Origin: a virus
Direction: 5' to 3' (one strand)
Virus record (IMG/VR): IMGVR_UViG_3300042691_019356
Location: 7,318-71,317 of that record
Length of the DNA: 64,000 nucleotides
Made by a program: the position numbers and the translations under genes. Shown here piece after piece: positions 3,114 to 64,000 of the stretch (within the stretch, counting starts at the first letter, position 1; the number at the start of each line of letters is the position of its first letter). The notes beneath the pieces are model-generated. The model searched no databases and was not told the origin of the DNA. It saw only the letters and a list, made by a program, of their open reading frames with translations.

Positions 3114-3574
3114 AGATCCATGAGATCATTAAACTCAACGGAATCAATACTGCCGCCGCCGTAATCATCAGTTTTGCAAATGAGAAAACATTTCTGATGA
3201 TACGGACCAACATTGTGCAGATAACCTTTGTTTTCTGCAAGTGGATTGTCTTTGTTAAGCCATCGCATACAAAGGATCTGAATAGGAGCCATTGGGCTTC
3301 GCTCCCATTTATCCCTTGCTGCAATGTCGCAATACAGCGGCGTGAAGTAACTACCAAGCTCTCCGACGATCCATGCGTAGTAATGACCCACGGGAGCATC
3401 GTTAAGCTTTCGCCTGTCATGAATGGCGATGTCAGACCAGTTGTGCCGAACGTAATGCTCGGCTTCCATAATCATCCTGTCATGTAACGACCCATACGGA
3501 AGCTTGGGCCGGATTTTTTCAAGTTGCTGGGTGGAGACGAGGACAGACATAGATCCTTGCGAGGACTCTGGCAT
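3077..3574 (-). CDS. hypothetical protein (165 aa)
   Basis: Clean ORF. No motif recognised. Confidence 0.5.
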   Translation of the reverse strand: MPESSQGSMSVLVSTQQLEKIRPKLPYGSLHDRMIMEAEHYVRHNWSDIAIHDRRKLNDAPVGHYYAWIVGELGSYFTPLYCDIAARDKWERSPMAPIQILCMRWLNKDNPLAENKGYLHNVGPYHQKCFLICKTDDYGGGSIDSVEFNDLMDLCLLGNYKQYLK

Positions 3575-3620: not shown

Positions 3621-4160
3621 TTACGCAGGCAATGGCTGCAACCTGAGCGACGGAAACAGCTTGCGATTTGAAAGGCGATGCCAGTTTTGTACGACCTGTG
3701 GCAATGTATCAAAAGGTTCGGTCATAACGTTTCCCGATTTCGTGTAGGGACATATCCAGTCAGCAACCGTATTGTTAATATAGATCAACGGAAAGTCATG
3801 CCTTGTGCCAATCCAAATTGCACCAGTATCAATCGGCTTGTTTCCTGAACAACGAACAAAAGGATAGAAGCCGCCTTCTATTGCCTGTTCGATCTGACAA
3901 TAAATACCACCCCATCCAAATTGATTGATCTCCTCCAGGATTTCAGTGAACTCCTGCCGTGATGTAGTCCGAAGCTTTGCGTGTTTCTGGATGTCAAGCT
4001 CTGTATTGTACCAGCGCTTAAACCTTATGACATACTTTCTACCCTGGCAAATTGCCTGCTTGCATAGTGCCAGTCTGTTGTCGGTCTGGGCTTTTGAAAA
4101 AACAGGCCAACCGTACTTATTTAATTGTTCGTAATGTTTTTTGCTCTGGTAGTTTGCCAA
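3621..4160 (-). CDS. hypothetical protein (179 aa)
   Basis: Clean ORF. No motif recognised. Confidence 0.5.
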   Translation of the reverse strand: MANYQSKKHYEQLNKYGWPVFSKAQTDNRLALCKQAICQGRKYVIRFKRWYNTELDIQKHAKLRTTSRQEFTEILEEINQFGWGGIYCQIEQAIEGGFYPFVRCSGNKPIDTGAIWIGTRHDFPLIYINNTVADWICPYTKSGNVMTEPFDTLPQVVQNWHRLSNRKLFPSLRLQPLPA

Positions 4161-4663
4161 GGTCTTGACGCAATGAATGGCGTTTTTTTCTCATAGGCTT
4201 TTACCTCTCTCAAGATTGGATCTTTGACAACCAGGAGAGAAAGCAAAAATGAATGAGTCTTAGCATTGTAGCGATTGACCTCAACGCCATCAAGCCATAA
4301 TAAAATCTCTTGCGACTTTCTGGCGCAGTCAATCCAATACTTCCTGTGTGAAATAGCTTCCTGTTGCTGAATTGTCTTGGCAACCATGCCAGATACAGGA
4401 CAGATAAATTCAAGTCTTCCAGGTGCCCCATAGCCACGAACTGTATAGAACTTATACCAGATGAATGCAGCTCTGCGTTTTGCCTTTTCAAGTTGAAACC
4501 AGAATTTCATTCTGATTGTATGCAATGCCCTGTGCCTCCATTGATTTGTGCCAATCCATGGTTTCTTTTCTTGTTTAACTCGCTCTCTTGAAATTAGCGT
4601 GATCTTATACGGGAATGACTTGGCCCCTGGTCTCTTCCTGGCCACTTGCCCCAAACACCACAT
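4121..4663 (-). CDS. hypothetical basic protein (start uncertain)
   Basis: ORF 4121..4813. The first 50 codons run through a GC-rich stretch and look like run-on, so the internal ATG at 4663 is used. Confidence 0.3.
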   Translation of the reverse strand: MWCLGQVARKRPGAKSFPYKITLISRERVKQEKKPWIGTNQWRHRALHTIRMKFWFQLEKAKRRAAFIWYKFYTVRGYGAPGRLEFICPVSGMVAKTIQQQEAISHRKYWIDCARKSQEILLWLDGVEVNRYNAKTHSFLLSLLVVKDPILREVKAYEKKTPFIASRPWQTTRAKNITNN

Positions 4664-5880: not shown

Positions 5881-6099
5881 CTACTGGTTGGCAGATTTAC
5901 GCATGACCTCAAGACGCTTTTCCGTAAGATAAATCTGATAAATAGTATCACATTTATCTGGTTTTGTGCGACAATCTATCATGCCCTTCACGTATAGCCT
6001 CGTCTGGTCAGGAGCAAATGAACTGAGCAAAATCAAAAGAATAGCGGAAAGAAATACACCAAAAAGCATTCCCGCAGTAAAAGATCCTGAGTTTTTCAT
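5881..6099 (-). CDS. small membrane protein (72 aa, one N-terminal TM helix)
   Basis: Hydrophobic stretch FTAGMLFGVFLSAILLILLSSF followed by a Cys-containing soluble tail. Confidence 0.5.
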   Translation of the reverse strand: MKNSGSFTAGMLFGVFLSAILLILLSSFAPDQTRLYVKGMIDCRTKPDKCDTIYQIYLTEKRLEVMRKSANQ

Positions 6100-6688: not shown

Positions 6689-7202
6689 AATGCCTCTCGA
6701 TTAGTTTTACAAGCGTGTCTGCATTAAACTCCGTGACCCATCCACAACGAATCAGTTTTTCTCTTAGGGTTTCACTTAACTGTGCGGGCGGATTTCGGTA
6801 AGCCTTGGGGACTTCACGCATCCCTGTATAACAGGCCCAAAACTCAAGCGCAGTCCAGACCGGACAATCTTCATCGCCAATCGGCTTTGCATTTGCAAGC
6901 CTTTCCCTGATGGTCTGACTTTTTACATTGCCCCAATCAGCCTCATCAATGCGACGATTCATTTCAGCGAGCTGAAAGAATGCTTTTTGCCGCAGTTCAC
7001 CAGCTTTGCCATTTTCGATAACAGACAGATTGCCATAAGAGATTGCCTGAAATCCAGCTTCCGATGCCCAGTTGCACCACGTATATTGCGTCCAGCCAAT
7101 ATGTAGACGCCAGTTCTTCATCATGTTGCCAAACGCAACACGATTATCAGCCGGCTCCCATGATTCTGGTGCCGGTGATTGCTTGCTGCCAGAGTTGTTC
7201 AT
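6585..7202 (-). CDS. XRE-type helix-turn-helix DNA-binding protein (205 aa)
   Basis: The N-terminal segment FGNMMKNWRLHIGWTQ...ISYGNLSVIENGK matches the Cro/C1 HTH pattern (...is.iErGk). Confidence 0.5.
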   Translation of the reverse strand: MNNSGSKQSPAPESWEPADNRVAFGNMMKNWRLHIGWTQYTWCNWASEAGFQAISYGNLSVIENGKAGELRQKAFFQLAEMNRRIDEADWGNVKSQTIRERLANAKPIGDEDCPVWTALEFWACYTGMREVPKAYRNPPAQLSETLREKLIRCGWVTEFNADTLVKLIERHYASQKQHKPKTDSAIMQSSCEAVHESSEGLDKML

Positions 7203-7524
7203 TTTGGTTTTTGAGAGATTGCTTGAGTTGATTGATTTTTGGTTCTACAAGGTGGTGGCTAGAAACAGTTCCAGTAATACCTTGAACAGAAATACGAACT
7301 GATCCACATGGAAGGGTTTCAGTGGTAACAGACATCCACTGCTTCCATTCGTCTTCAGAAACTGGCTTAACCCCCTGAAAAACAAAATGACCACCACCAC
7401 TTCCATTAACGCATCCAAGGCAAGCACAAGCCTGGGACTTGCACCACCTTTTGCGCCAGGCGGAAGGAATCATCTGCATTGCTGCATTGACTTCTGCCTG
7501 GCTCCTCATTTGATCGTTACTCAT
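7147..7524 (-). CDS. hypothetical Cys-containing protein (about 125 aa)
   Basis: The internal ATG at 7524 overlaps the upstream stop (7517) by 8 nt. Confidence 0.4.
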   Translation of the reverse strand: MSNDQMRSQAEVNAAMQMIPSAWRKRWCKSQACACLGCVNGSGGGHFVFQGVKPVSEDEWKQWMSVTTETLPCGSVRISVQGITGTVSSHHLVEPKINQLKQSLKNQNEQLWQQAITGTRIMGAG

Positions 7525-19724: not shown

Positions 19725-19926
19725 ACTTTCTGCTGTTCCGAGACTTGTTGCGGTAGCTGACTTTTTCCTTGTTGATTTCCTGCATCAGAGCCCTGAGTCG
19801 ATCCGCTTCGTACTCCCCCCTGCGCTCTGCAATTTCAGCAAGAGTTTCTTTGTAGCCAGGTGGCTCAAGGTCTGGGCGACGAAGGAATATCTGAGTCCAG
19901 TTTGGTGTTGGGTGTTGATCCGACAT
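19702..19926 (-). CDS. hypothetical protein (74 aa)
   Basis: Its start abuts the dnaB stop. Confidence 0.45.
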   Translation of the reverse strand: MSDQHPTPNWTQIFLRRPDLEPPGYKETLAEIAERRGEYEADRLRALMQEINKEKVSYRNKSRNSRKSSSAKGS

Positions 19927-21374
19927 CAGAGGCGATCAAATACAACAGATGACGCAAGATCAATCTTGCATTGAAGTGTTCCAGTGATGCCACCTCGATT
20001 TTTGGCAACCGAAATCGCAAGCTCGTAGGGATCGGCCTCAGTGTCGTAATAACCAGGACGAAACAGAAACATCACAATATCTGCATCTTCCTCAATCCGA
20101 CCAGATGCACGTAGGTCTGACAACGTTGGCATCTTGTCGTTTCGCTGCTCAACACCACGATTGACCTGACTCATTAAGATAATATCAATTCCAAGTTCAA
20201 CAGCAAGACGCTTCAATGTTTTTGTGGCAACACCAATTGCAGTTGCGTCATTTGCTGTTCCAGTGCATCCATCTATCAACTGCAAATAGTCAATGAAAAT
20301 ACCACGAAGGTTGGGGCGCGTTCTTGCAAGCATTCTCACAGTTGCAGCAACGGAAGCAACATCCTGGCTTTTATCAAAAACATCAAAAGCCTTAACAAAG
20401 GAAGAAGTATTAAGCTCTTTGATTCTCTGCCTTTGTGCTGGGCTGTAACTACGATTCTGTAAATTGCCCATCCTGATTGGATCAACAATTCTACCAGCTT
20501 CTTTCATTCGCAAGAAATCAAGACAGGAAACTGCCTTATATTCGATCTGACGCCTTGGCATTTCAAGACTGAAAAAAGCAACGTTGTTGCCAGTATTAGC
20601 CAGGTGTGTTGCAAGTGTTACGGCAGCCGTTGTCTTGCCCATTGCTGGCCGTGCAGCAATTACAATCAATCGACCACCGTAAGCTGAATCGGGTCCGGCA
20701 ATACCACCTTGAATAGTATTATCAAGAATTGTAATACCAGTGCTGACAGTATTGTTCTCTGGCAGTGGTTGAAGCAACTCTGTAATTGTGCTATCCCATC
20801 CCTTATCTCCCTGTTCATCTTCTGATAGTGAATTCCATATAGTTTGCTGTCTTTCAATCAGAGACGGAATCTTTTCTGCAAGTAGCTCATGGCTTGGGCT
20901 TTCATCAAGTGCGTCAACAAGAAGTTCAGCCGAATTGCGAAGGTAGCGCCTTGCAAGCTTGAGACGCCAAAGCGGAATAACAGAATCAGAGAGAACAGAG
21001 AAAGAATATACACCAGCAAATAACGGACTTGCTGATCTTGCGTTTTCCACGATCTGTTCGCCACTTTCTTCAGACTTGAGTATTCCGCTCATAATCATTG
21101 CATTCAATCTCAATGCAATGGATCCGGGCATAATAAATCCATCTTTGCCAACCTCTAACATTGCCTTGCTAATTGCAATATACGCGGCACGCATCTTTCT
21201 ATCGCTAAACCAAGAATCATTAACAGAGGAGACAACTTCGTACATCTTGCTGGATCTGTAGTCACCAGACTCAATCGCATCAACACAAAAAGCAACAAAT
21301 GCTTCTTCCATTTCAGTTGTATCCCATGACCGCATGAAAGGGATCAGGGATTCAGCCTTCTCGATCTTCTTCAT
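19926..21374 (-). CDS. dnaB: DnaB-type replicative helicase
   Basis: Walker A AARPAMGKTT and Walker B IFIDYLQL. The 482-aa length and overall DnaB C-terminal RecA-fold pattern fit. Confidence 0.9.
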   Translation of the reverse strand: MKKIEKAESLIPFMRSWDTTEMEEAFVAFCVDAIESGDYRSSKMYEVVSSVNDSWFSDRKMRAAYIAISKAMLEVGKDGFIMPGSIALRLNAMIMSGILKSEESGEQIVENARSASPLFAGVYSFSVLSDSVIPLWRLKLARRYLRNSAELLVDALDESPSHELLAEKIPSLIERQQTIWNSLSEDEQGDKGWDSTITELLQPLPENNTVSTGITILDNTIQGGIAGPDSAYGGRLIVIAARPAMGKTTAAVTLATHLANTGNNVAFFSLEMPRRQIEYKAVSCLDFLRMKEAGRIVDPIRMGNLQNRSYSPAQRQRIKELNTSSFVKAFDVFDKSQDVASVAATVRMLARTRPNLRGIFIDYLQLIDGCTGTANDATAIGVATKTLKRLAVELGIDIILMSQVNRGVEQRNDKMPTLSDLRASGRIEEDADIVMFLFRPGYYDTEADPYELAISVAKNRGGITGTLQCKIDLASSVVFDRL

Positions 21375-22180
21375 GAAAGTGTGTAGTTGACTTTGTTTGT
21401 AGTTGGATTTGCAGGAACTTGCTTACCGCATTCCTTCGTGATCTTGCAAATAACGTCCTTGTATCCTATAAAGCCAAGTGACTGCCAGTTTCTCTCGGAA
21501 GCGTACTCACAGTATTCTGCAAGGACTCCAAGCTGCTTTGCATACAACAAGCCATTCAGCGTGGATTTTGTAAGTCCTGGTGCAACGCGAGGATGTGCCT
21601 TGCGGCGGTTGGCCTGCCACTGCTCCAGGTGCTCCCGGTAGGGCTCCAGCCAGTCGGGCAGCTCCAGCGATCGAGGGCTGGCCGCTGAGCGTCGAGGGGT
21701 CGGCGGTTGGGGGCTATGGGGGTTTTCTTGGTTTATTGGTTTTCTTTCTATTGGTTTTCTCTGGTGGACTGAAAATCCGTCCGCTGGTTTTCCGTCCGCC
21801 GGTAGGCCGGTGGACTGATTTTCAGTCCACCGGTCATCGGCCACCGCTGGCGACGGCTGCTCGACCGGTTCTGGCGGAACTGCCTGGTCGGTGAACTTGT
21901 AAATTTCACCAGTAACACGACCATCCGCATTCCTGGTTTTCACGTTCTGCAGGTAGCCATATTCCCTAAGCTCGCGCAGCGCAACTTTTATGGCATCTCT
22001 CCCCTCGGTCCCATGAGAGATAATCCAGTCCCTTGTGAAAACAAAGTTCTCAGCGTGTGAAAGACATCCAGCGAGAATACCCTTTGCACGCCAGCTAATC
22101 CTGCTATCTCGTATAGCCTCATTAAGAATGATGGTAAAGTTTTTACCAGCAGGAGTCGATGTAAAACGCAAGTCGCTCAT
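21371..22180 (-). CDS. replication initiator-like protein (winged-helix N-domain)
   Basis: The N-terminal wH segment ends in ALRELREYGYL. It lies immediately upstream of dnaB with an ATGA junction. Its central linker carries DNA repeats. Confidence 0.6.
   Translation of the reverse strand: MSDLRFTSTPAGKNFTIILNEAIRDSRISWRAKGILAGCLSHAENFVFTRDWIISHGTEGRDAIKVALRELREYGYLQNVKTRNADGRVTGEIYKFTDQAVPPEPVEQPSPAVADDRWTENQSTGLPADGKPADGFSVHQRKPIERKPINQENPHSPQPPTPRRSAASPRSLELPDWLEPYREHLEQWQANRRKAHPRVAPGLTKSTLNGLLYAKQLGVLAEYCEYASERNWQSLGFIGYKDVICKITKECGKQVPANPTTNKVNYTLS
21735..21833. repeat. ori-like repeat cluster inside the initiator gene
   Basis: ATTGGTTTTCT occurs twice (21735, 21750). TCCGTCCGC occurs twice (21776, 21791). 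GGTGGACTGA occurs at 21763, and a 27-bp perfect palindrome CCGGTGGACTGA-TTT-TCAGTCCACCGG spans 21807-21833. Confidence 0.6.
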
Positions 22181-24047: not shown

Positions 24048-24917
24048 ATGAGCCTCAGTGACTACCTCAATGCCGTGGGCAAAGTCCCACTGCTCACGGC
24101 GCAGGAGGAGATCATCCTCGGAACACAGGTCCAACGGATGATGAAGATTCTTGCAGACAAGCAGGAATCTGAATTAACAGAGGAGGAGAGAAAGCATGTA
24201 CGAGTTGGCCGCAGGGCCAAGAATCGTATGGTTTCTGCAAACCTGAGGCTTGTTGTCAATGTGGCCAAGAAATTTAGACCACAGGCTCACATGAAAATGG
24301 AAGATATTTTGCAGGAGGGCAGCATTGGGTTGATGCGTGCCGTCGAGAAGTTTGACCCAGAGCGCGGATACAAGTTTAGTACATACGCTTACTGGTGGAT
24401 AAGACAGGGAATAACAAGGGCGGGAGAAAATCAAGAAGCAGAAATCAGAGTTCCAGCTCACCTGCAACGAATCGCCAAGCAAGCGGCAGACGCCAGATCA
24501 AAGCTTTTATCCAAAAACGGTAGGCAGCCAACTGTAAAAGAAGTTGCACTTGCTATCAACGAGCCAGACCCCAAAAAGATTGAGTACGCAATTGCGCATC
24601 AGGTTTATACGTTCTCCCTTGACATCTCGCTGCTAGATGGTGACAAGAGTCCATTGCTGGACATCATGAACTGTGATGACGAAAGCGAGATAGAGGACAA
24701 TGAAAACAATAAAATGAAAATGGACTTATTGATGCTGGCAATCAATGCCCTTGATCCAGTAGACGGAAGCATGATCAAAAAAAGATATGGAGTTAACTGT
24801 GAACCCCATACAATCAAGCAACTATCGGCAGAGTTTAATCTTTCGCCTCAGGCGATCAGGGACAGAATCAACAAAGCGATGAACAGGATCAGGATTGTTG
24901 TCAGCCAGTTTGTTTAG
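24048..24917 (+). CDS. sigma-70 family RNA polymerase sigma factor (regions 2, 3 and 4 present)
   Basis: PLLTAQEEI, NLRLVVNVAKKF, EGSIGLMRAVEKFDPERGYKFSTYAYWWIRQ, and a region 4 HTH LSAEFNLSPQAIRDRINKAMNRIR. Confidence 0.9.
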   Translation: MSLSDYLNAVGKVPLLTAQEEIILGTQVQRMMKILADKQESELTEEERKHVRVGRRAKNRMVSANLRLVVNVAKKFRPQAHMKMEDILQEGSIGLMRAVEKFDPERGYKFSTYAYWWIRQGITRAGENQEAEIRVPAHLQRIAKQAADARSKLLSKNGRQPTVKEVALAINEPDPKKIEYAIAHQVYTFSLDISLLDGDKSPLLDIMNCDDESEIEDNENNKMKMDLLMLAINALDPVDGSMIKKRYGVNCEPHTIKQLSAEFNLSPQAIRDRINKAMNRIRIVVSQFV

Positions 24918-56387: not shown

Positions 56388-58088
56388 TCAGGATTCCCTG
56401 CTTTCGACGCTCGCTTCCATGCTCTCGCCCTCCAGCGCTCTGCCAGTAGCTTCCTCCATAGTGTTCTGCATGTTGTTTGTTGCAGGGGGCTCCGGGGCAA
56501 GCTGTTCCTTGTTGGGGCCGATTCCGAGATCCTTTGCGGTCTCGCTTCCCTCCAGGCCCATCTTTTCAAGCAGTGTCTTAACGCTGAAGTTCGGCAAGCC
56601 TTCAAACAGCTCACCAGCATCGAGCATTTCAAGAAATGTGCCAATGGGAATAGCATTGGAATCCTTGAACAAGCTGCTGTATGCCATGACTTGCTGGCTA
56701 TGAAGCTTGACGGGAATGAAGTTCTTGCTAATCGTAATTTCAATCGGTGGGTAGTTGCGGTAGGCGGAGGCGTACATCAACGCTGCATTCAGGCAGTCCT
56801 GCAGTGAACTGATCAGCACAGCAAGTTGCGAATCAGATTGAGAGCGATCGAGCAGCTTGGCAAAGCCTGATTCAACCTGTGTTTTGCCAGGTGTCATCGT
56901 CACGGCAGCTAACTTGTCCATCGCGGCTTCAATCCGTGCAAGTTCTTTCAATGTTGTGTCGGCACCCTCCATGCCAGGAGACAGCATTCCAAACCTTGCA
57001 TCTGGATTAGCGCTAAACAAGGCACGACCAGCACCAGAAAAAATCTCTTCATCCGGCCTGATGCCAGTACCGGTCAGCATCGTGGACGCATTGAGGTGAA
57101 TGTTCTCGGAAAGATCAGCAGAAACGGCCCAGTGGTGCAGATTGAGGCGGGCAACGTCATACAGAAGTGGACGGGCACGGAAAAATGCCTCTTTTTTGCC
57201 GCCGTAGCAGGGCCGGAAGGGAATAAATGACAGCGAAAGGATGGTTGTCATGCCTTCATTAAGCAAATATCTGTTGACATTCTCGTTTCCGGTGTCTTTT
57301 TCGTAAATACGGCAACGAACACGCTCTTCAACGACATCGCTACCAGGATTTTGGTACGGAATCAGATCGTAAACAACGACAGTAGGAATAACTTCCTCAA
57401 AATGTTCGTTTTCAAGGCTTGGGCGACGAATTTCCGACTTGATTCGCAGATATGTAACGCGAGTATCGTACCTCGTAACCCCATTGATTGTTACCGGGCC
57501 ACGATCATCACGAATATCAAGCACATCATCAGTCGGAATAATGACAAAATAGGGCCTGGCATTCAGCATGATCTCCTCGGCGGACGTAATTCCGTCGCGC
57601 ATTCGTGGATATTCAGACCAAATGCCGGCAACACCACCATTCAGAGCCTTCGTGAACAGCTCTTTAGTGAACGAAGTGATGGCATTGCCCTGGAGATCGA
57701 CGTTTTTGAAGAATTCTTCCCATTGCGGAGGTACGTCCTGGGGAAGGATTACCCCTTTTCGCAGTGCTGTACCAACAATCAGGTCAACAAGATGGCTATA
57801 ATACGGCTCGAAACACGTCAGTGCACGGGTTTTGCGGACGTTGTAAGACTCCGGGTGCTCTCGATGATCTTGCGGAATCGTTCCAGGCGCCGCTTCATCA
57901 AGCCAATACTCGGGATAGGTGCAGAATTTGATCGGCATCAGCCGTGTCATCTGCTGCGCTTGCTCGGGAGAGTAGGAATCAGCATCTACAACCTCTTCCA
58001 GGAATGTTTCCTGTTCCGGGAACCGACGCTCAAACGGATCGAGATTATCGTCGGCCCCGAGAATCAGCGAGCTGGGCGTGGCAATCAT
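56388..58088 (-). CDS. portal protein (566 aa)
   Basis: Size and position downstream of terL and upstream of the scaffold gene. Confidence 0.6.
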   Translation of the reverse strand: MIATPSSLILGADDNLDPFERRFPEQETFLEEVVDADSYSPEQAQQMTRLMPIKFCTYPEYWLDEAAPGTIPQDHREHPESYNVRKTRALTCFEPYYSHLVDLIVGTALRKGVILPQDVPPQWEEFFKNVDLQGNAITSFTKELFTKALNGGVAGIWSEYPRMRDGITSAEEIMLNARPYFVIIPTDDVLDIRDDRGPVTINGVTRYDTRVTYLRIKSEIRRPSLENEHFEEVIPTVVVYDLIPYQNPGSDVVEERVRCRIYEKDTGNENVNRYLLNEGMTTILSLSFIPFRPCYGGKKEAFFRARPLLYDVARLNLHHWAVSADLSENIHLNASTMLTGTGIRPDEEIFSGAGRALFSANPDARFGMLSPGMEGADTTLKELARIEAAMDKLAAVTMTPGKTQVESGFAKLLDRSQSDSQLAVLISSLQDCLNAALMYASAYRNYPPIEITISKNFIPVKLHSQQVMAYSSLFKDSNAIPIGTFLEMLDAGELFEGLPNFSVKTLLEKMGLEGSETAKDLGIGPNKEQLAPEPPATNNMQNTMEEATGRALEGESMEASVESRES

Positions 58089-58470: not shown

Positions 58471-59883
58471 CTACTTCCAACGCGGGCCATAGCCAGCACG
58501 CATACCAGCCCTGGGGAATACCTGCCAAACGAGGTAGCGGAACGCATCACCAGCATGGGAGTGGTCGGTGGCACCACCCTTCAACGGCTTCATCGTCTTG
58601 CTGTCATACACCCATTGCTCCAGTGATGCAATGGTGTCGTAACAGGTCGTTGGATTGACGAGAATGCAATTCCGGTGGATGTAGAGGTTGGTGTGGGCCA
58701 GGGTCTCCGCGATCGGCGGGTTGCGGCGCTCCGTCACCACCTGCACGCCGGCATTCCGCAGGATGTCGTGGTCGCTCTGGGTCGAGGCAGTCGAGCCGTG
58801 GCTGCCGCTGGCGTCCGGGTAGCAGGTGATCATGCCATTCGCCAGATGACGTGGGAATTTGCGTTGCAGATGAGCAACAAGCGCAAAGGTATCAGGGACA
58901 CGAGCTTCATCAAAACAGTGCAGCTGCTGACCACCAGGACCAGGACGGACAACACCATAAACGGATTGGCATTGACCCACGTTGAAGTCAGCGCCAAACA
59001 CAATGCGTTCACCGGCTTCGGGATGAAACAGACCAGTGGAATGCTTCTGTCGATCGAACTCGTAGAAGACAGTGGCAGATTCAAGGTTGACGAACTCACC
59101 TTCGAGATACGCCTTAATCAGTGACGGATGGTACTTAGATTCGAGGTCAGCAATAAAACCGGGATCAAGGTATGGGTTTTCGCGGGACTTACCTTTATAC
59201 AGCTTCTTGTTGTCAGCTGGTTCTTTAACGTAGAAGGAATACATCCATGCAAAGCCTTCAGGCGTTGACACGGTGCAAATTTGTGGGCAGTTACCAACAC
59301 GAACGCGACCCTGCAGCTTCACCATTGCTTTCTCGGCAATGTCATGCCTGGACGTGTCAATTTCATCAGCTACCAGTGAAGCAGCATTGACACCGACGAG
59401 ACGTTGGTAGTTTTCAAGCGACCGCTGTAGTATCGGAGTGTCACCACCGGGAATCTTCAGAATGATGTTCGGGCGGGGAGAAGCGCGGAACTCATACGGG
59501 ATCGAGTATTTCTCCAGCACCTGGAACCAAGTAGGTAGCGCCACGTCCATGATTAGCGGAACGGTGGGCTCCAGAAACAAATGCGTGAAGCCAGGAGATC
59601 GCAAGCAAAGAAGAATTGCTTTTATTACGGCACTGTAAGATTTACCAGAACCGTAGCCCGCACAGAACCCAACGTACTTGTGATCAAAGTCACATACAAA
59701 GTCACGCTGATACGGCAGTAAATCAGCAACCAGCCTGGATTCAAGATCCTCGCCATCCAGTCTCGATTTCGTTCGCTTCGATAGCCGATTCAAGATCGCT
59801 TGATCTGCCAGTAGCCCCAATCCGCGCAGCGATGCCTGGTCCGCATATCGTGTCGCCTTTGCCTTGATCGGCATTCGTGTCAA
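58471..59883 (-). CDS. terL: terminase large subunit
   Basis: Walker A CAGYGSGKS and Walker B LVADEID, with a C-terminal nuclease-sized domain. The start is TTG 59883 or ATG 59874. Confidence 0.85.
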   Translation of the reverse strand: MTRMPIKAKATRYADQASLRGLGLLADQAILNRLSKRTKSRLDGEDLESRLVADLLPYQRDFVCDFDHKYVGFCAGYGSGKSYSAVIKAILLCLRSPGFTHLFLEPTVPLIMDVALPTWFQVLEKYSIPYEFRASPRPNIILKIPGGDTPILQRSLENYQRLVGVNAASLVADEIDTSRHDIAEKAMVKLQGRVRVGNCPQICTVSTPEGFAWMYSFYVKEPADNKKLYKGKSRENPYLDPGFIADLESKYHPSLIKAYLEGEFVNLESATVFYEFDRQKHSTGLFHPEAGERIVFGADFNVGQCQSVYGVVRPGPGGQQLHCFDEARVPDTFALVAHLQRKFPRHLANGMITCYPDASGSHGSTASTQSDHDILRNAGVQVVTERRNPPIAETLAHTNLYIHRNCILVNPTTCYDTIASLEQWVYDSKTMKPLKGGATDHSHAGDAFRYLVWQVFPRAGMRAGYGPRWK

Positions 59884-60352: not shown

Positions 60353-60383
60353 TCCCTCGGGGTGAGATCCGGGGGATTTTTTT
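60353..60383 (+). terminator. intrinsic terminator (plus strand)
   Basis: TCCCTCGG-GGTGAGAT-CCGGGGGA followed by a run of seven T. Confidence 0.7.
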
Positions 60384-60620
60384 GGAAAAAAATTTGGTGG
60401 CAAGGACTTGTTGTTATATGGTGTGGTGAAAATATATTGTGGTTGGGAAGGATTTGTTGAAAATGGGAAAAAAATTGTGGTCGTTGAAATTGGGAAAAAA
60501 ATTTGGTGGTGGGCTTGGTGAAATTGGAAAAAAAATCTAGGGGTGGGTTTGGTGAAAATGGAAAAAAAATTTGGTGGTGGGCCCGTTGAAAACGGGAAAA
60601 AAATTTGGGAGTGGGTGGTC
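60384..60620. repeat. phased A-tract repeat array (six GGA7-8TTT units)
   Basis: GGAAAAAAA starts at 60384, 60466, 60493, 60526, 60560 and 60595. The last four units of 33-35 bp read GGAAAAAAATTTGGTGGTGGGCYYGGTGAAAAT. Confidence 0.85.
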
Positions 60621-60713
60621 GCCGCCGTTCCGCGCAAAATGTAACCCACCCCGGCTAAATTGTAACCCATTCCTTATTGCATCGTAACCTCTGCTTCGAT
60701 GTATTGCAATGTA

Positions 60714-60743
60714 GCGGCCCCTTGATTGTATTAAAGGGGCCGC
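60714..60743. repeat. 10-bp-stem hairpin GCGGCCCCTT ... AAGGGGCCGC
   Basis: Read directly, just past the stop of 60756..61670. There is no T-tract on either strand. Confidence 0.7.
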
Positions 60744-60755
60744 CGTTACTGTTAA

Positions 60756-61670
60756 TCAGCGCTTGCGATTCTCCTCCTGCTTGTTGGAAAATGTGATAAC
60801 ATCGCCACGGCGAAGGACTACCCTGCCGCAGTAATCTGCGAGAGCATTAAGAGTGCCCTCCAACGTATTAAACCGTGCCACGCCCTTAAACGTATCTTTG
60901 TGTTGGATCATATATGCTGCCAGTGATACAACCCTGGCACTGCCACCCTTACTGGTCAAGTTCGTTTGAGCTGTAACCCAATTAAGCAGGGCATGTTTCT
61001 GCAATTTACCGCGCTTTTCATTGGCACTGATCGATGTGATGATTGGACGCGTCAGAGCATCAATGTCACGCGGACTGTAACCAGTATTGATCTTCTCACT
61101 GATTCCCCAGCCAGCGCGCTCCATTGCGGCGCGCGTGATCGCATCAGGCTCCCAGACAGGCTGTCCGGGCTTGACGGTACGTGAACCCTTCTCAACGGTC
61201 GGCAGGGGGGGCAGGGGGGCCGCCATTGACGCTAGGAGCGTATCAAGCTCCAGCATTACCGGATCGTCGGCATCCTCTGCCACAGCGGCGTCCTCTGCCA
61301 CAGCGGCGTCCTCTGCCGCGTCAGCAGCGGCCACACTTGCGGCGATCCTCTCAGCAGAATCAGCAGCGGCCACGGCGTCAGCAGCAGCAGCAGCAGCAGC
61401 AGTAAGGTCGCCGGTCGCCATAGCGTCAGCCACGGCCACAGCAGCAGCAGCGGCGGCGTCAGCAGCAGCGGCCACAGCGGTAGCAGCGTCAGGATCAGCG
61501 GCCACAGCAGCAGCAGCAGCGGCGATCCGATCAGCAGCAGCAGCGGCATCCTTGACGTAGTTGAAGGAGCGGCCGTTGTTCTTGCGATTGTTGGGCACGG
61601 TTTTTTCCGGTAGGCGGGACTGGTAGAGGTTTGTCCCGTTGCAGGAATCATACAACCCCCTGCCTGCCAC
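60756..61670 (-). CDS. protein with Ala/Asp low-complexity N-terminal half and globular C-terminal domain (304 aa, GTG start)
   Basis: This is the only frame with a non-repetitive C-terminal 160 aa. The start codon is uncertain. Confidence 0.45.
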   Translation of the reverse strand: MAGRGLYDSCNGTNLYQSRLPEKTVPNNRKNNGRSFNYVKDAAAAADRIAAAAAAVAADPDAATAVAAAADAAAAAAVAVADAMATGDLTAAAAAAADAVAAADSAERIAASVAAADAAEDAAVAEDAAVAEDADDPVMLELDTLLASMAAPLPPLPTVEKGSRTVKPGQPVWEPDAITRAAMERAGWGISEKINTGYSPRDIDALTRPIITSISANEKRGKLQKHALLNWVTAQTNLTSKGGSARVVSLAAYMIQHKDTFKGVARFNTLEGTLNALADYCGRVVLRRGDVITFSNKQEENRKR

Positions 61671-61907
61671 GCAACCTACAGGCTAAACCGGTTTGCAAAC
61701 CGTAACAGTCTCGCCACGTTGTAGGACGGTGAACCGCAAAAAACATTCGTTTTTAGCCGTTGCGGGAACGTGCTAGCAGCCGTGCCATACAGATAAAAAC
61801 GCGGGAATTGTGGGGAACCGGCAGGTCGATGTAACTAACACCTGGCGCGGTTTGCATCAGCGCCGGCACCCTATCTTGCATCGGTTGGGTTTGTTGTATT
61901 TAGCGAT

Positions 61908-62382
61908 TGCAATGTATCATTGTGTTTAGCATCTGCTATGTATTGTTATCTATCAGCAATTGCTATGTAACAAACAGCGATTGCAATGTATTGTAATTCG
62001 ATCGTAATGTAATGTAGAAGGCTGTGCATTGTAATGTAACTGCAGCTGTATTGTAATGCACCGGGGCGTTGTATTGTAACGTGCATTCGTTGTATTGTAA
62101 GGCGTACTTGTTGTATTGTAGCACGGAACGGGCGTAACGTAACGTGGCGCAAGCGTAATGCAATAAGGTAAATGGCGTAATGTAATGAATGGCGTTGTAA
62201 TGTATTATGAATGGCGTTGCGATGTAATGAATGGCGCAATCGCCTGTAATGAATGGCGTTGCGATGTAATGTGAATGGCGTTGTAATGTAATGAATGCGT
62301 GAATGGCTTGTTATGAATGGGCCTGGGGCTTGTCATGAATGGCCCAGATCAGTGTTGCGAATGCGCTTGTATTGAATGGCGT
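61908..62382 (+). repeat. iteron array, about 22 direct repeats with a 21-22 bp period
   Basis: Cores are TTGC(A/T)ATGTA, TGTA(A/T)TGTA and (GTAATG)AATGGCG. Positions are listed in the findings. Confidence 0.85.
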
Positions 62383-62815
62383 TATTCCAAACTTGTATCT
62401 TGTGGGTTCTCTGTTGCTTGGTGCCAGGGTTTGCAAGCAAGGGATCGACAATAATGTATTTTTTCTCTTTGTAATCTACCATGCGAATGAGATCAAGTTC
62501 ACGCAGGTCTTGTATTGCTCGCCGCATTGTTCTTTCATGAATGATGGTTTCTTCTGCGAATTCCACCAGATTGTAATGTATCAACATCTTGCAATAAGAA
62601 ACGTCAATAAGCGTGGCAAGTATTGCAAATGATGTCATCGAAAGATTGAGATCACCCCTGTTGCGAAGTATTTTAAGCAGTCTTGCACTCCATGGAGGTA
62701 ACGTACCAAGGCTTGTAGTTAGTTGCATTTTGTAGAAATTTGGGATGGGTTCCGGGCGGCCCCGAATTGTAAACGAGTTTTGTAAAACCCTGTCGTGGAC
62801 TGGGGTTCTCGCCAT
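62333..62815 (-). CDS. winged-helix DNA-binding protein (160 aa; possible TTG extension to 62971)
   Basis: The C-terminal segment ETIIHERTMRRAIQDLRELDLIRMVDYKEKKYI fits an HTH plus wing. ATG 62815 is preferred over TTG 62971. Confidence 0.5.
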   Translation of the reverse strand: MARTPVHDRVLQNSFTIRGRPEPIPNFYKMQLTTSLGTLPPWSARLLKILRNRGDLNLSMTSFAILATLIDVSYCKMLIHYNLVEFAEETIIHERTMRRAIQDLRELDLIRMVDYKEKKYIIVDPLLANPGTKQQRTHKIQVWNNAIQYKRIRNTDLGHS

Positions 62816-62980
62816 GGGATTGTCAAATTCCCGGTTTGAGATCCATTGCGGCGCAGTCGATCTCGGGAGTTGCTTATTATTATTTATGGCCTGTACGGCA
62901 ATCCCTATGGTTGCAATGCGACCACGCACAACGTTGTAATGCAACTTGACAGCCGTTGCAATGTAATGCAATACTCGTTG

Positions 62981-63817
62981 CTATTCAACCTCGGACTCCT
63001 CCAATGCAACTAACAGTTGATCGACACCAAGTGCGGTAGATTGTAATTGCTTCCCGATGTCAGCTAACTTGGCAGCAGCGTTTAACATTGATGGCATGTC
63101 CCGTACTGTAATGTTTTCTGCATTGTCCAGCATTGTATTCAAGGTGGCATTGGCAAGTTGTGCAATCTTTGCTGCATTCATACTTAGCTGCCGACCAATT
63201 GCTTCTTGTTCCTGGCGATACCTCTCCAGTTGCATTAAGTGTTCCTGTTGTCTTGCATCCTGGGACAGCTTGATCTTCTGGGATAGCATGTACCTGTCGT
63301 AATCAGCAGCACGTAGCTTCCAATTGTTCTTGCAATAAATCTTGTAGATGGTTGATTCTTGTATATTGAGTATCTGCGAGATATATTGTATTGATCGACC
63401 CCCTCCCAGTTCTAGGAAGGATTGTAGGAATTGAAATTCTCGTTCAGATTCAAGAGGGGCGTACTGTGACCTGTATAGCCAGGAATGTGTTTTGGTTGTG
63501 GGGGAGGAGTTAGTGGGCGCGAGAATAACTTCTTCTTGGGTATTGTCATCACTATCAAAACCAAAAGGATTGACATCAACAGTAGCATCATCTTGTGATT
63601 CATCTTCAGCGTCATTGTATTCAAAGTCATACTGTGTTGTATCTTCATTCGTGTCTTCGTTGTAATCAGATTGGTTGGGCACTTGTGATTGGGGGCGGGT
63701 GGTTGTAATTCTACCACGGGTGGGATGTTTGTGCTGGGGACTGGTTGTAACGTTTCCATTCCTGTAACGTAATGTGAGTTGACACAAAAAATGGGATGTG
63801 ACATTGCCACACCCCAT
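62981..63817 (-). CDS. HTH plus coiled-coil protein, terminase small subunit candidate (278 aa)
   Basis: Acidic N-terminus, an HTH-like segment RSIQYISQILNIQESTIYKIYCKNNW, then a long helical region. The TerS call is tentative. Confidence 0.4.
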   Translation of the reverse strand: MGCGNVTSHFLCQLTLRYRNGNVTTSPQHKHPTRGRITTTRPQSQVPNQSDYNEDTNEDTTQYDFEYNDAEDESQDDATVDVNPFGFDSDDNTQEEVILAPTNSSPTTKTHSWLYRSQYAPLESEREFQFLQSFLELGGGRSIQYISQILNIQESTIYKIYCKNNWKLRAADYDRYMLSQKIKLSQDARQQEHLMQLERYRQEQEAIGRQLSMNAAKIAQLANATLNTMLDNAENITVRDMPSMLNAAAKLADIGKQLQSTALGVDQLLVALEESEVE

Positions 63818-63879: not shown

Positions 63880-64000
63880 CACAAGCCATTCAACACTAAA
63901 TAATCCCACACGGCGTTGCTTTGTAACGCTTGTGATGCTTCATAAACCATTAACAAAGAACAATGGATTGTGTCGAGAGGTGTCATTCATGTAGTGTGCG

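Follow-up and report, generated by a model that had tools for sequence, protein, structure and literature searches.

In phage lambda, the helix-turn-helix (HTH) of the small terminase reads repeats to start DNA packaging, namely the R1-R3 sites for gpNu1 within cosB. The pac site of phage SPP1 consists of three sets of direct repeats that span the promoter and start of the small terminase gene, terS (PMC4737164). Like the pac sites of SPP1 and SF6 (pacL-pacC-pacR), the repeat array described here, from an uncultured freshwater phage, is a putative cis site near terminase genes made of sets of short direct repeats. It lies in a stretch of 64,000 nucleotides that was analysed as a whole (the window; positions 7,318 to 71,317 of IMG/VR record IMGVR_UViG_3300042691_019356). 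While the SPP1 and lambda sites have 2-4 repeats over 100-270 bp, in or beside terS, the present array has ~24 units over 475 bp, and, unlike those sites, it is accompanied by an additional winged-helix gene of its own and by another array, which is palindromic. A further likeness is with the SRL/SRR repeats of T7, in whose sequence we found 13 copies of CCTAAAG (at most one mismatch) at positions 175-338 with a strict 13-bp period. Both arrays are polar, with a core of 6-7 bp, variable spacers, one orientation and a non-coding location in a concatemer-junction or packaging region; the T7 array adjoins the terminal repeat, and its period of 13 bp is also the commonest spacing of the CATTCA core in the clade of the window phage. 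However, the window phage has a Terminase_6N-type large terminase (TerL), siphovirus-like genes, an array period of 21-22 bp and no T7 layout. To our knowledge, no dedicated binding protein is known for the SRL/SRR array, and its function is still unsettled.

Two kinds of plasmid locus are also comparable. Repeats flank the initiator gene in mini-F (incB-repE-incC) and P1 (incC-repA-incA), and the gamma origin of R6K has 7 x 22 bp; plasmid initiators of this kind have two winged-helix Rep_3 domains, and their loci combine sets of 4-9 iterons with neighbouring DnaA boxes and an AT-rich stretch. The array resembles these iteron plasmids in its head-to-tail repeats of ~19-22 bp, a period near two helical turns, and resembles mini-F and P1 in having repeats on both sides of a winged-helix gene with more copies downstream. 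It differs from them in its ~24 units, in a protein with a single winged helix below Pfam thresholds, in the lack of an unwinding element and DnaA box, and in a separate O-like/DnaB replication module elsewhere in the genome. In plasmid centromeres (sopC of F, 12 x 43 bp, in the order sopB-sopC; parC of R1, 10 x 11 bp, in the order parR-parC; tubC of pBtoxis, with TubR, in the order tubR-tubC), a small DNA-binding protein is believed to form a filament along the repeats, and the sopC units have a palindromic core. There too, long direct repeats directly follow the gene of a small DNA-binding protein, but in the window no partner NTPase was found, the genome is of lytic type and the site is inside a packaging module.

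The array occupies positions 61895-62390 (~475-500 bp, non-coding) and consists of ~24 short units in the same direction, arranged in three sub-arrays, A, B and C (Table 1). The initial annotation had counted about 22 units, a fair figure, and its repeat positions agree with ours within 1 bp; its three graded, same-orientation sub-families were borne out by the motif positions. All copies are on the + strand, and the flanking genes read antisense to them. The sub-family A motif [T/C]TGC[A/T]ATGTA starts at 61907, 61933, 61960 and 61981 (spacings 26, 27 and 21), and its units contain a near-palindromic core, AGCAATTGCT. The sub-family B motif TGTA[A/T]TGTA starts at 61987, 62008, 62030, 62047, 62070, 62091 and 62112, with a degenerate copy, CGTAACGTA, at 62133 and spacings of mostly 21-23. 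The sub-family C motif TGAATGG[C/G] starts at 62186, 62208, 62228, 62250, 62272, 62300, 62314, 62336 and 62373, with the variants TAAATGGC at 62169 and TGAATGCG at 62292 and spacings of mostly 20-22. Sub-array C decays into the 3' end of the winged-helix (wHTH) gene, as had been noted before: the last three or four copies lie inside this ORF, one of them taking in the stop codon (GGC CAT TCA TGA).

Table 1. Positions of the repeat array and associated features in the window.
Feature	Position	Strand	Description
Sub-array A	61895..61995	+	4 units AGC(G/A)AT(T/C)GC(A/T)ATGTA; in gene sense TACATTGCAATCGCTAAAT
Sub-array B	61985..62165	+	~8-9 units TGTA(A/T)TGTA; in gene sense TACAATACAAC; period 21-23 bp
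Sub-array C	62165..62390	+	~12 units TGTAATG-AATGGCG; in gene sense GCCATTCA + TTACATTACAAC; period 20-22 bp
Four B-like copies	62905..62975	+	GTTGCAATGC / GTTGTAATGC / GTTGCAATGTAATGCAAT; spacing 22-23 bp; located between the terS and wHTH genes
wHTH	62333..62815	-	160 aa from ATG; extended to 62971 (212 aa) by gene callers
TerS, small terminase	62981..63817	-	Acidic N-terminal extension, HTH, coiled-coil region
Ala-rich protein	60756..61670	-	Acidic, low-complexity, Ala-rich N-terminal half; conserved C-terminal domain
CCACCAAATTTTTTTCCCATTTTCAAC array	60380..60625	-	6 units (gene sense), period 34 bp; link to main array uncertain
TerL, large terminase	58471..59883	-	Terminase_6N, E 2.2e-8; phrog_2, E 4e-34
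Portal gene (DUF4055)	56388-58088		Next after TerL
O-like initiator	21371-22180		In operon with DnaB (19926-21374)
Iteron-like repeat cluster	21734-21834		Inverted + direct repeats within the O-like initiator gene

The motif TGTAWTGTA was found 11 times in the 64 kb, against an expectation of 0.50 +/- 0.64 (0/100 shuffles reached 11), and nine of these occurrences are inside the array; for ATGAATGGCG (at most one mismatch), 13 matches were found where 6.4 were expected, seven of them in the array. Autocorrelation of positions 61900-62390 gave peaks at lags 5 (z 5.4), 21-22 (z 4.8-6.3), 42 (z 6.1) and 64 (z 7.1), and Tandem Repeats Finder reported periods of 21, 22, 42 and 64. The 5-bp sub-period fits sub-array B, which is built from tandem 5-mers. 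The TTACA-type B units recall HLR1 half-sites, but their register is 5-bp, not 10-bp. The main array is where the initial annotation had placed it, but repeats also occur beyond that interval. The four B-like copies upstream of the wHTH gene (62912, 62935, 62957 and 62962; repeat families D3, D9, D10 and D12) have the orientation of the main array, and one or two more lie at 60697-60715; no repeats comparable to the upstream copies were evident by eye at that place in the relatives examined. The claim that the array holds no credible ORF stands: the only long one (97 aa, 61946-62239, minus strand) was rejected as merely the repeats translated, is called by neither the JGI nor the ENA gene callers and is broken by a 5-bp indel in the strain variant L006. 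A CRISPR-like array was also rejected, the whole unit being just 21-22 bp with no spacers. Strain variants differ by whole units (a 42-bp deletion of two units; extra A units in L006), so changes in the copy number of the array are tolerated.

In transcription order, the module comprises terS, the wHTH gene, the array, the gene of the Ala-rich protein, a hairpin-T8 element and terL. The array starts ~650 bp beyond terS and 2 kb ahead of terL. Within the array the CATTCA repeats come first, followed by a lineage-specific middle array and by an array with the core AGCAATCG. TerS matched phrog_6299, 'terminase small subunit' (E 2.8e-9), and by tblastn only the annotated terS genes of the cyanosiphoviruses S-CBS2, S-CRES1-3, PSS2 and CL131. 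In the cultured relatives S-CBS2 and S-CRES1 terS directly adjoins terL; the wHTH gene, the array and the Ala-rich gene therefore constitute an insertion into the packaging module. TerS is 41-51% identical across the clade and has an invariant HTH region (GRS..Y...N..E....NNW..R..DYD). The Ala-rich protein is found at the same position in all relatives and is weakly conserved (17-25% identity, with an 'MGW' motif); its gene encodes 280, 299 or 304 aa depending on the strain. It had no match in Pfam, PHROG or PDB profile searches, and a profile search of its own gave four matches and was swamped by low-complexity words. The AlphaFold2 model was poor (pLDDT 49), with a C-terminal H-H-H-beta hairpin, and the modelled C-terminal domain is possibly a second winged helix. 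The CCACCAAATTTTTTTCCCATTTTCAAC array is the amplified form of an element that is single-copy in relatives, where it lies 50-1100 bp upstream of terL and is composed of a compound GC-rich hairpin, AAAT8 and CC-CYATT.

The initial annotation had called the gene before the array a winged-helix gene, and the AlphaFold2 model of its product (mean pLDDT 69; topology H-H-H-beta hairpin-H) supports this, with SmtB and ST1710/MarR, winged helices of ArsR/MarR type, as the top Foldseek matches (E ~4e-3). The protein has one winged helix (~120 aa). Its Pfam match to HTH_36 is below threshold (E 0.006-0.01), and TubR (4asn, E 0.014) was among the top matches of a PDB profile search, with matches to SarX and SmtB that were at least as good. 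Against 5.8 billion proteins the sequence retrieved only itself, a profile search 18 proteins and an exhaustive profile search 453 representatives. When 59 members of this family were scanned, HTH_36 was matched by 17, RepL by 14 (best E 1e-10) and Phage_rep_O by two; DnaD_N, Rep3_N and PHROGs named 'replication initiation O-like' were matched as well. The family-wide alignments (A7 and A8) were too diverse for locus searches. Four distant relatives outside the clade (L060, L069, L071 and L072) lie at most ~800 bp upstream of T7-type large terminases, which indicates that the family is terminase-linked in two unrelated terminase lineages; no comparable downstream array was present in these T7-type contexts.

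A search of relatives for the motif had been proposed, and the repeats turned out to be conserved in 15 related lineages. The module order is common to at least these 15, that is, to every clade member with enough sequence, at identities of 56-81% for TerL and 18-30% for wHTH. The relatives were found only via TerL and via alignments: single-protein searches of IMG/VR with wHTH and TerS gave no matches, no near-identical DNA was found among 50,697 phage records, and the 185,579 species genomes of GTDB contained neither a relative nor a copy of the array. The GTDB result gives no sign of a prophage or plasmid state and allows no host assignment. The element kept in all 15 lineages is the GCCATTCA/CATTCA core of sub-array C, which has 4-24 sense copies at most 400 nt from the wHTH stop (background 0.05-0.34) and no antisense copy there in any lineage; an array with the AGCAATCG core lies downstream of it. 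The sub-array A core is found at the same place in relatives in 7-15 units (for example TAAATGTTAAATAGCAATCGT at 21 bp, and 15 copies of ATAGTTACAGATAGCGATTGCTATTTA at 27 bp). The sub-array B motif is confined to the lineage of the window, and relatives have a different middle array, such as AATTATGTAAATCAC in L024. Two genomes with a TerL 63-70% identical (L013 and L022) are without this TerS type, without wHTH and without the arrays, and have another small HTH/Zn protein directly upstream of terL; these parts are therefore inherited together.

Spacing is far less stable than the cores. Neighbouring CATTCA cores are 4, 9, 13, 17-18 or 22 bp apart in relatives, 13 bp being the commonest value (L031, L064-68, L066, L077 and L028) and 20-22 bp that of the window, and the AGCAATCG-type arrays have spacings of 21, 27 or 55 bp. 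The initial annotation had argued that a 21-bp period puts every site on one face of the helix for cooperative binding. This argument did not hold up in the relatives, nor fully in the window, where A units are 26-27 bp apart; it applies only to the lineage of the window, and the variable spacing shows that helical phasing is not a conserved property.

The cores, their orientation and their position have persisted in 15 lineages although the proteins have diverged to 18-50% identity, and the array is therefore very probably a protein-binding site. Our leading but tentative reading of the comparative evidence is that it serves as a cis-acting, multi-site recognition and assembly region of the DNA-packaging module. 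It lies within the terS-terL interval in the same order in all clade members, and its co-inheritance with the TerS type fits a recognition site of the pac or cosB kind. TerS and wHTH, possibly with the Ala-rich protein, would polymerise head-to-tail along the polar repeats, and the resulting large nucleoprotein complex would tag one place on the replicated concatemer as 'self' and recruit or position TerL; we infer that the first packaging cut would be made nearby. The circular map of the genome assembly is compatible with headful packaging. Since copy number and spacing drift, the short cores would be bound singly and then joined by protein-protein polymerisation with no fixed helical register. 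The deeply conserved CATTCA and AGCAATCG cores would be read by a conserved partner, most plausibly TerS, given its almost unchanging HTH, and the lineage-specific flanks and middle repeats (TACAATACAAC in the window) by the fast-evolving wHTH. Four more copies of TACAATACAAC precede the wHTH gene, so that auto-regulation of this gene is probable. This assignment of proteins to cores is guesswork, because the recognition helix of the window protein (MRRAIQDLR) departs from the family consensus (S.SLKRLK) although its CATTCA core is unchanged.

Several observations argue against the packaging reading. Characterised pac and cosB sites are compact, with few repeats over ~100-300 bp, and the array exceeds each of them several-fold in size; relatives carry up to 24 CATTCA cores and 15 A units. 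Known TerS sites are in or beside terS, not 650 bp downstream of it. The conserved hairpin-T8 element, which is nearer to terL, could be the real pac or cos site. The weak sequence affinity of wHTH is to the winged helices of replication initiators (HTH_36, RepL, phage O and DnaD_N) and not to terminase families. A bolder form of the packaging reading, which we regard as possible but doubtful, would make the locus a previously undescribed packaging-initiation centre: a polar 'multi-iteron' platform of half a kilobase on which TerS and the initiator-like wHTH co-polymerise, the CATTCA cores serving one and the lineage-specific repeats the other, while the Ala-rich protein reads the palindromic array. 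In that case the wHTH family, with its 453 unannotated representatives, would constitute a novel group of accessory or specificity factors for terminases, common to siphovirus-type and T7-type machines. Such a family might be derived from replication initiators and so link origin-like iteron recognition to packaging.

The initial annotation had listed plasmid Rep proteins, centromere-binding proteins and small terminases as candidate binders; the last belongs to the reading favoured here, while the other two lost ground. In an iteron-type replicon, wHTH would be initiator-like and the repeats iterons, forming a secondary origin (late or plasmid-mode) or a locus for copy control or handcuffing like incA of P1 or incC of mini-F. 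We consider this unlikely. Head-to-tail repeats of 21-22 bp lie beside a winged-helix gene, four copies upstream and ~24 downstream, and the wider family matches HTH_36, RepL, Phage_rep_O, DnaD_N and Rep3_N; yet wHTH has one winged helix where Rep_3 has two, the Pfam Rep families are below threshold, and the upstream copies are not evident in the relatives examined. In L024, L020 and L066 the CATTCA array is followed, ahead of the AGCAATCG array, by a stretch of ~170 bp that on visual inspection seems very rich in AT. In the window, however, no AT-rich unwinding element was found in 60.3-63.0 kb (the top 40-mer, 72.5% AT, is inside the wHTH gene), and no DnaA box (at most one mismatch) near the array. 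The genome has a separate O-like initiator and DnaB with an iteron-like cluster of their own at 19.9-22.2 kb, and there is no helicase, loader or primase gene near the array. A repeat spacing of 4 to 27 bp and the GTDB result, with zero copies and no sign of a plasmid-prophage, also speak against iterons.

On one side of the array are ~15 kb of small genes of early type together with terS, and on the other the structural genes; nearly all genes are on one strand, and the phage encodes its own sigma factor. This would suit a transcriptional switch or insulator at the early/late boundary, where wHTH, perhaps with the Ala-rich protein, would cover the repeats and thereby repress or activate read-through into the structural operon or block it. 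The MarR/ArsR-like fold is typical of repressors, and auto-regulation is suggested by the B-like copies that precede the wHTH gene. Overlapping promoters may be formed by the B units themselves, which on the gene strand create three pairs of sigma-70-like hexamers (TTACA-17-TACAAT at 62101, 62057 and 62018), but this geometry is a by-product of a repeat period of 21-22 bp, and relatives with periods of 13, 18 or 27 bp lack it. The motifs are limited to this locus and absent from other promoters in the 64 kb, 20 or more operators per promoter are without precedent, and the co-inheritance with TerS and the terminase linkage of the distant wHTH relatives are left unexplained. A role of this kind is thus a rather weak prospect.

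The order of a small DNA-binding gene and a long direct-repeat array, the TubR profile match and the palindromic core of the A units, as in sopC or parS repeats, also recall a centromere-like or genome-organising site, on which a TubR- or ParR-like wHTH would form a filament for segregation or condensation. The TubR match is no better than those to SarX or SmtB, and neither an integrase or plasmid-maintenance gene nor a copy in bacterial genomes was found. No ParA, ParM or TubZ-type NTPase was detected either in the window or in the other ~7 kb of the genome: Pfam and PHROG gave none in the seven ORFs flanking the array and in 20 of the larger ORFs of 1-26.5 kb, and none is among the Pfam marks precomputed for the upstream 10 kb. 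A centromere is improbable.

We give very little credence to an element acting at the RNA level, in which (CAUUCA)n in the 3' UTR of the wHTH mRNA and the 5' UTR of the Ala-rich gene would recruit or sequester an RNA-binding protein or sRNA. The orientation of the core relative to transcription is conserved without exception, but uniform orientation is normal for iterons too. The spacing is irregular and untied to the helix, as for single-strand binders, there is no terminator between the wHTH gene and the array, the sense strand is high in C (27.8%) and low in G (13.7%), and neither strand folds beyond the level of shuffled sequence (z +0.72 and +0.69). However, no conserved structure and no known CAUUCA binder were found, the sole match in an Rfam scan was a sub-threshold isrG located elsewhere than the array, the neighbouring genes encode DNA-binding folds, and palindromic A cores make sense on duplex DNA. 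A neutral tandem repeat produced by replication slippage, although units are gained and lost among strains and assemblies often break at the array, is effectively refuted, since cores, sub-array order, orientation and position are kept at 18-50% protein identity while flanks and periods have turned over, which points to purifying selection on the cores.

How a terminase chooses viral DNA is understood for just a few model phages, and next to nothing is known of the recognition sites in environmental phages. The present locus offers two invariant short cores and a dedicated, uncharacterised wHTH family that accompanies terminase genes in phages of two unrelated types. The natural variation of spacing and copy number in at least 15 lineages is a comparative data set on what a packaging (or iteron) platform needs, which is apparently core, polarity and number and not helical phase. 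If the packaging reading is true, the locus would provide a new accessory factor and a new site architecture, and a CATTCA array plus a AGCAATCG array after a small wHTH gene would be a signature by which to locate packaging origins in cyanophage genomes from metagenomes; should the iteron reading be true, the locus would be a second, plasmid-like replicon within the packaging module of a lytic cyanophage.

Many contig ends of these phages fall within the arrays. They were considered as physical termini and rejected, as they lie inside the repeats at differing places. The breaks are caused by the repeats themselves, and the arrays thus account for the frequent interruption of assemblies at this point.

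The array comprises about 24 short units at window positions 61895-62390, all on the plus strand and thus antisense to the flanking genes, which are on the minus strand. The three sub-families and coordinates in the initial annotation were right to within 1 bp (Table), and its statement that no credible ORF lies between the stop of the winged-helix gene (wHTH; 62333) and the start of the Ala-rich gene (61670 or later) was borne out, as no gene finder calls coding sequence there. The first three or four C units in gene direction are taken in by the wHTH coding sequence, whose stop codon falls within one of them, and the A-unit core AGCAATTGCT is near-palindromic. TGTAWTGTA was found 11 times (0.5 expected; none of 100 shuffles reached 11), and autocorrelation maxima were detected at lags of 5, 21-22, 42 and 64 bp (z 5-7). 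Four further B-like copies lie at 62905-62975, upstream of the wHTH gene. The C-unit core 10-mer ATGAATGGCG also has two isolated exact copies on the array's strand inside unrelated coding regions (3419-3428 and 4173-4182; chance expectation ~0.1 exact copies), and TGTATTGTA is present at 4002. The A sub-array and the Ala-rich gene are separated by a unique non-coding stretch of some 230-300 bp. A perfect 14-bp palindrome in it, CGGTTTGCAAACCG (61689-61702), may serve as an operator or form a small hairpin.

Features of the repeat arrays and associated genes (window coordinates unless an L-numbered contig of a related phage is named; unit motifs in gene sense)
Feature	Position	Strand	Description
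C units			GCCATTCA and TTACATTACAAC; ~12 copies; spacing 20-22 bp; first in gene direction
B units			TACAATACAAC; ~8-9 copies; spacing 21-23 bp; after C units
A units			TACATTGCAATCGCTAAAT; 4 copies; spacing 21-27 bp; after B units
Array 2	60380-60625		six 34-bp units CCACCAAATTTTTTTCCCATTTTCAAC; two phased T-tracts per unit
Ala-rich gene	60756-61670	minus	between the array and array 2
terL (large terminase)	58471-59883		followed by portal gene
terS (small terminase)	62981-63817		upstream of wHTH gene; matches phrog_6299
DnaB gene	19926-21374		beside O-like initiator gene
O-like initiator gene	21371-22180	minus	~40 kb from array
Repeat cluster in initiator gene	21734-21834		direct and inverted; TATTGGTTTTCT x2 and palindromic units GGTGGACTGAAAATC.../GGTGGACTGATTTTCAGTCCACC
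Sigma-70-family factor gene	24048-24917	plus (opposite)	regions 1.2, 2 and 4; beside dCTP deaminase gene
Hairpin element in relatives	L011:1-110; L029:~95-130; L066:~6990-7030; L079:~7310-7350
Distant wHTH loci	L060:757-3682; L069:1547-4312; L071; L072:500-2953		1-3 small genes before terminase; podovirus-like contigs

Relatives were gathered by TerL (56-81% identical), by TerS alignment, by wHTH alignment and by contig look-ups. The repeats proved to be conserved: every lineage with sequence past the wHTH stop has the order terS, wHTH, CATTCA array, middle array, array with a AGCAATCG-type core, Ala-rich homologue and terL. Within 400 nt of the wHTH stop, 15 lineages have 4-24 sense CATTCA hexamers each and no antisense ones (background 0.05-0.34 per 400 nt), while protein identity across this clade is 18-30% for wHTH, 17-25% for the Ala-rich protein and 41-51% for TerS. 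The middle array and the flanks vary from lineage to lineage. The CATTCA period is 4, 9 and 13 bp in L031, L064-68, L077 and L028, 17-18 bp in L017, L020, L024, L044 and L079, and 20-22 bp in the window; that of the distal array is 21, 27 or 55 bp. Because diverged lineages share the cores and differ in the periods, selection has maintained the two cores, their polarity, order and position, but not helical phase. The initial annotation's description of an iteron-like, putative protein-binding region beside a winged-helix gene is thus supported by conservation, but its argument that the sites share one face of the helix is not general. Strain variant L006 of the window phage lacks exactly two C units (42 bp, cleanly deleted) and has additional A units, so variation in copy number is tolerated.

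The source phage is uncultured and from fresh water; its assembly map is circular, ~71.4 kb long, and nearly all of its genes share one strand. In a search of 50,697 phage records, the relatives of TerS were solely the annotated terS of cyanosiphoviruses S-CBS2, S-CRES1-3, PSS2 and CL131. In S-CBS2 and S-CRES1, terL immediately adjoins terS, whereas in the window ~3.1 kb lies between them, with the wHTH gene, the array, the Ala-rich gene, array 2 and a small opposite-strand ORF. Two relatives with TerL 63-70% identical (L013 and L022) are without this TerS type, wHTH and the arrays, and have a different small HTH/Zn-ribbon-like protein immediately upstream of terL; the module is thus inherited or exchanged together with the recognition subunit as one unit. 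Beyond the clade, T7-type large terminases (PF22530, E 3e-38) are preceded within ~800 bp by four distant wHTH members (Table), which are interrelated and so make up one extra independent clade. The slot one to three genes upstream of such a terminase is usually that of the small terminase. The co-absence and these neighbours link the module to packaging and not to replication. Direct-repeat protein-binding arrays are well known; a composite and deeply conserved module of this sort inside a terminase operon, with an unannotated winged-helix family, has to our knowledge not been described previously.

Several minor features were seen in these genes. TerS has a long, acidic N-terminal extension, and the N-terminal half of the Ala-rich protein is of low complexity, acidic and Ala-rich; in near-identical strains (L001, L002, L005) its gene is called at 280, 299 or 304 aa, apparently through GCN/GCAGCA repeats. 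In strain L004 (56-232), 70 bp matching window 63931-64000 is present twice, 107 bp apart; the window lacks this local duplication, which lies upstream of terS. TerL of L022 (3340-5190) has 616 aa versus 467, with a ~150-aa insertion after the Walker A region that resembles an intein or a homing-endonuclease insertion. In L069, a short CTGCCACCAG array with a 10-bp period (TRF 5-8 copies) lies ~480 bp upstream of the wHTH gene.

AlphaFold2, run on an 18-sequence alignment, models wHTH as H-H-H-beta hairpin-H with a mean pLDDT of 69. Foldseek ranks SmtB and MarR-type regulators highest for this model (E ~4e-3), and profile search of the PDB gave SarX, SmtB and TubR (E 0.006-0.016); these results confirm the winged-helix fold, which does not identify a function. 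No annotation exists for the family: word-indexed search of 5.8 billion proteins returned 18 members and an exhaustive profile search 453 cluster representatives. Among 59 members scanned, 17 matched HTH_36, 14 RepL, two Phage_rep_O and two DnaD_N, and PHROG matches were 'replication initiation O-like', so the closest resemblance of the DNA-binding domain is to small replication initiators. The sequence CCCGAGATCGACTGCGCCGCAATGGATCTCA (gene sense, 62840-62869), which precedes the wHTH ATG, shows nucleotide-level conservation in relatives (L017:~925-960; L020:~5940-5975). Because it is kept in L020 despite a stop interrupting the reading frame, it may act in regulation, as DNA or as RNA, rather than encode the N-terminus of the 212-aa ORF predicted by gene callers.

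We tentatively favour the array being a large cis-acting platform for packaging-recognition proteins, which would polymerise on it head-to-tail and thereby flag the concatemer for the initial cut by terminase. TerS would read the invariant CATTCA core and wHTH the lineage-specific repeats, since the TerS HTH is nearly invariant in the clade and the wHTH recognition helices vary; the window's lineage-specific repeat also lies upstream of the wHTH gene, where auto-regulation would be expected. Among the binders initially proposed (Rep, centromere-binding protein or small terminase), the small terminase type is thus favoured, without the helical-phase argument. Packaging signals made of direct repeats are known: SPP1 pac has three direct-repeat sets (PMC4737164), and in the T7 sequence we found 13 CCTAAAG cores arranged as a polar array with a 13-bp period next to the terminal repeat; characterised pac/cosB sites are, however, several-fold smaller. 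The array is also not adjacent to terS, and another conserved element (hairpin-AAAT8) might be the true cut site.

An iteron replicon or copy-control locus is less likely. In its favour are the wHTH family's affinities to initiators and the repeat copies on both sides of the gene, as in mini-F and P1, where copies lie upstream and downstream of the initiator gene. However, wHTH is a single winged helix, spacing is variable, a scan of the window around the array gave no AT-rich element or DnaA boxes, no genome-borne copy was found in 185,579 species genomes, and the O/DnaB module stands apart. The cluster inside the O-like initiator gene is likely the primary origin, by analogy with the position and style of the lambda ori iterons. 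Somewhat less likely again is a late-operon transcriptional switch, consistent with the MarR-like fold and the site at the early/late boundary; the array motifs are not at other promoters in the 64-kb window, and the promoter-like hexamers of the B units arise incidentally from the repeat period in the window. Elsewhere in the window are ThyX-like thymidylate synthase, dNMP kinase, Erf and exonuclease genes. A centromere is improbable, as its NTPase is missing: the ORFs scanned in the window and the Pfam marks from the remaining genome included neither an ATPase of the ParA, ParM or TubZ type nor an integrase. Action at the RNA level, for which absolute strand polarity and irregular spacing are the sole grounds, is very improbable, as no structure or known RNA family was found. 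A neutral repeat is ruled out by the conservation pattern.

Array 2 has 34% G and 5% C on the plus strand. It is a six-fold amplified form of an element that in relatives is single-copy, 50-1100 bp upstream of terL, and consists of a GC-rich compound hairpin, AAAT8 and CC-CYATT in that order. It may act as a strong terminator or as the UP element of a late promoter, or it may itself be the true pac/cos site. Its stems appear compensatorily different among lineages (e.g., CCCCCCG/CGGGGGG versus CCCCCGG/CCGGGGG).
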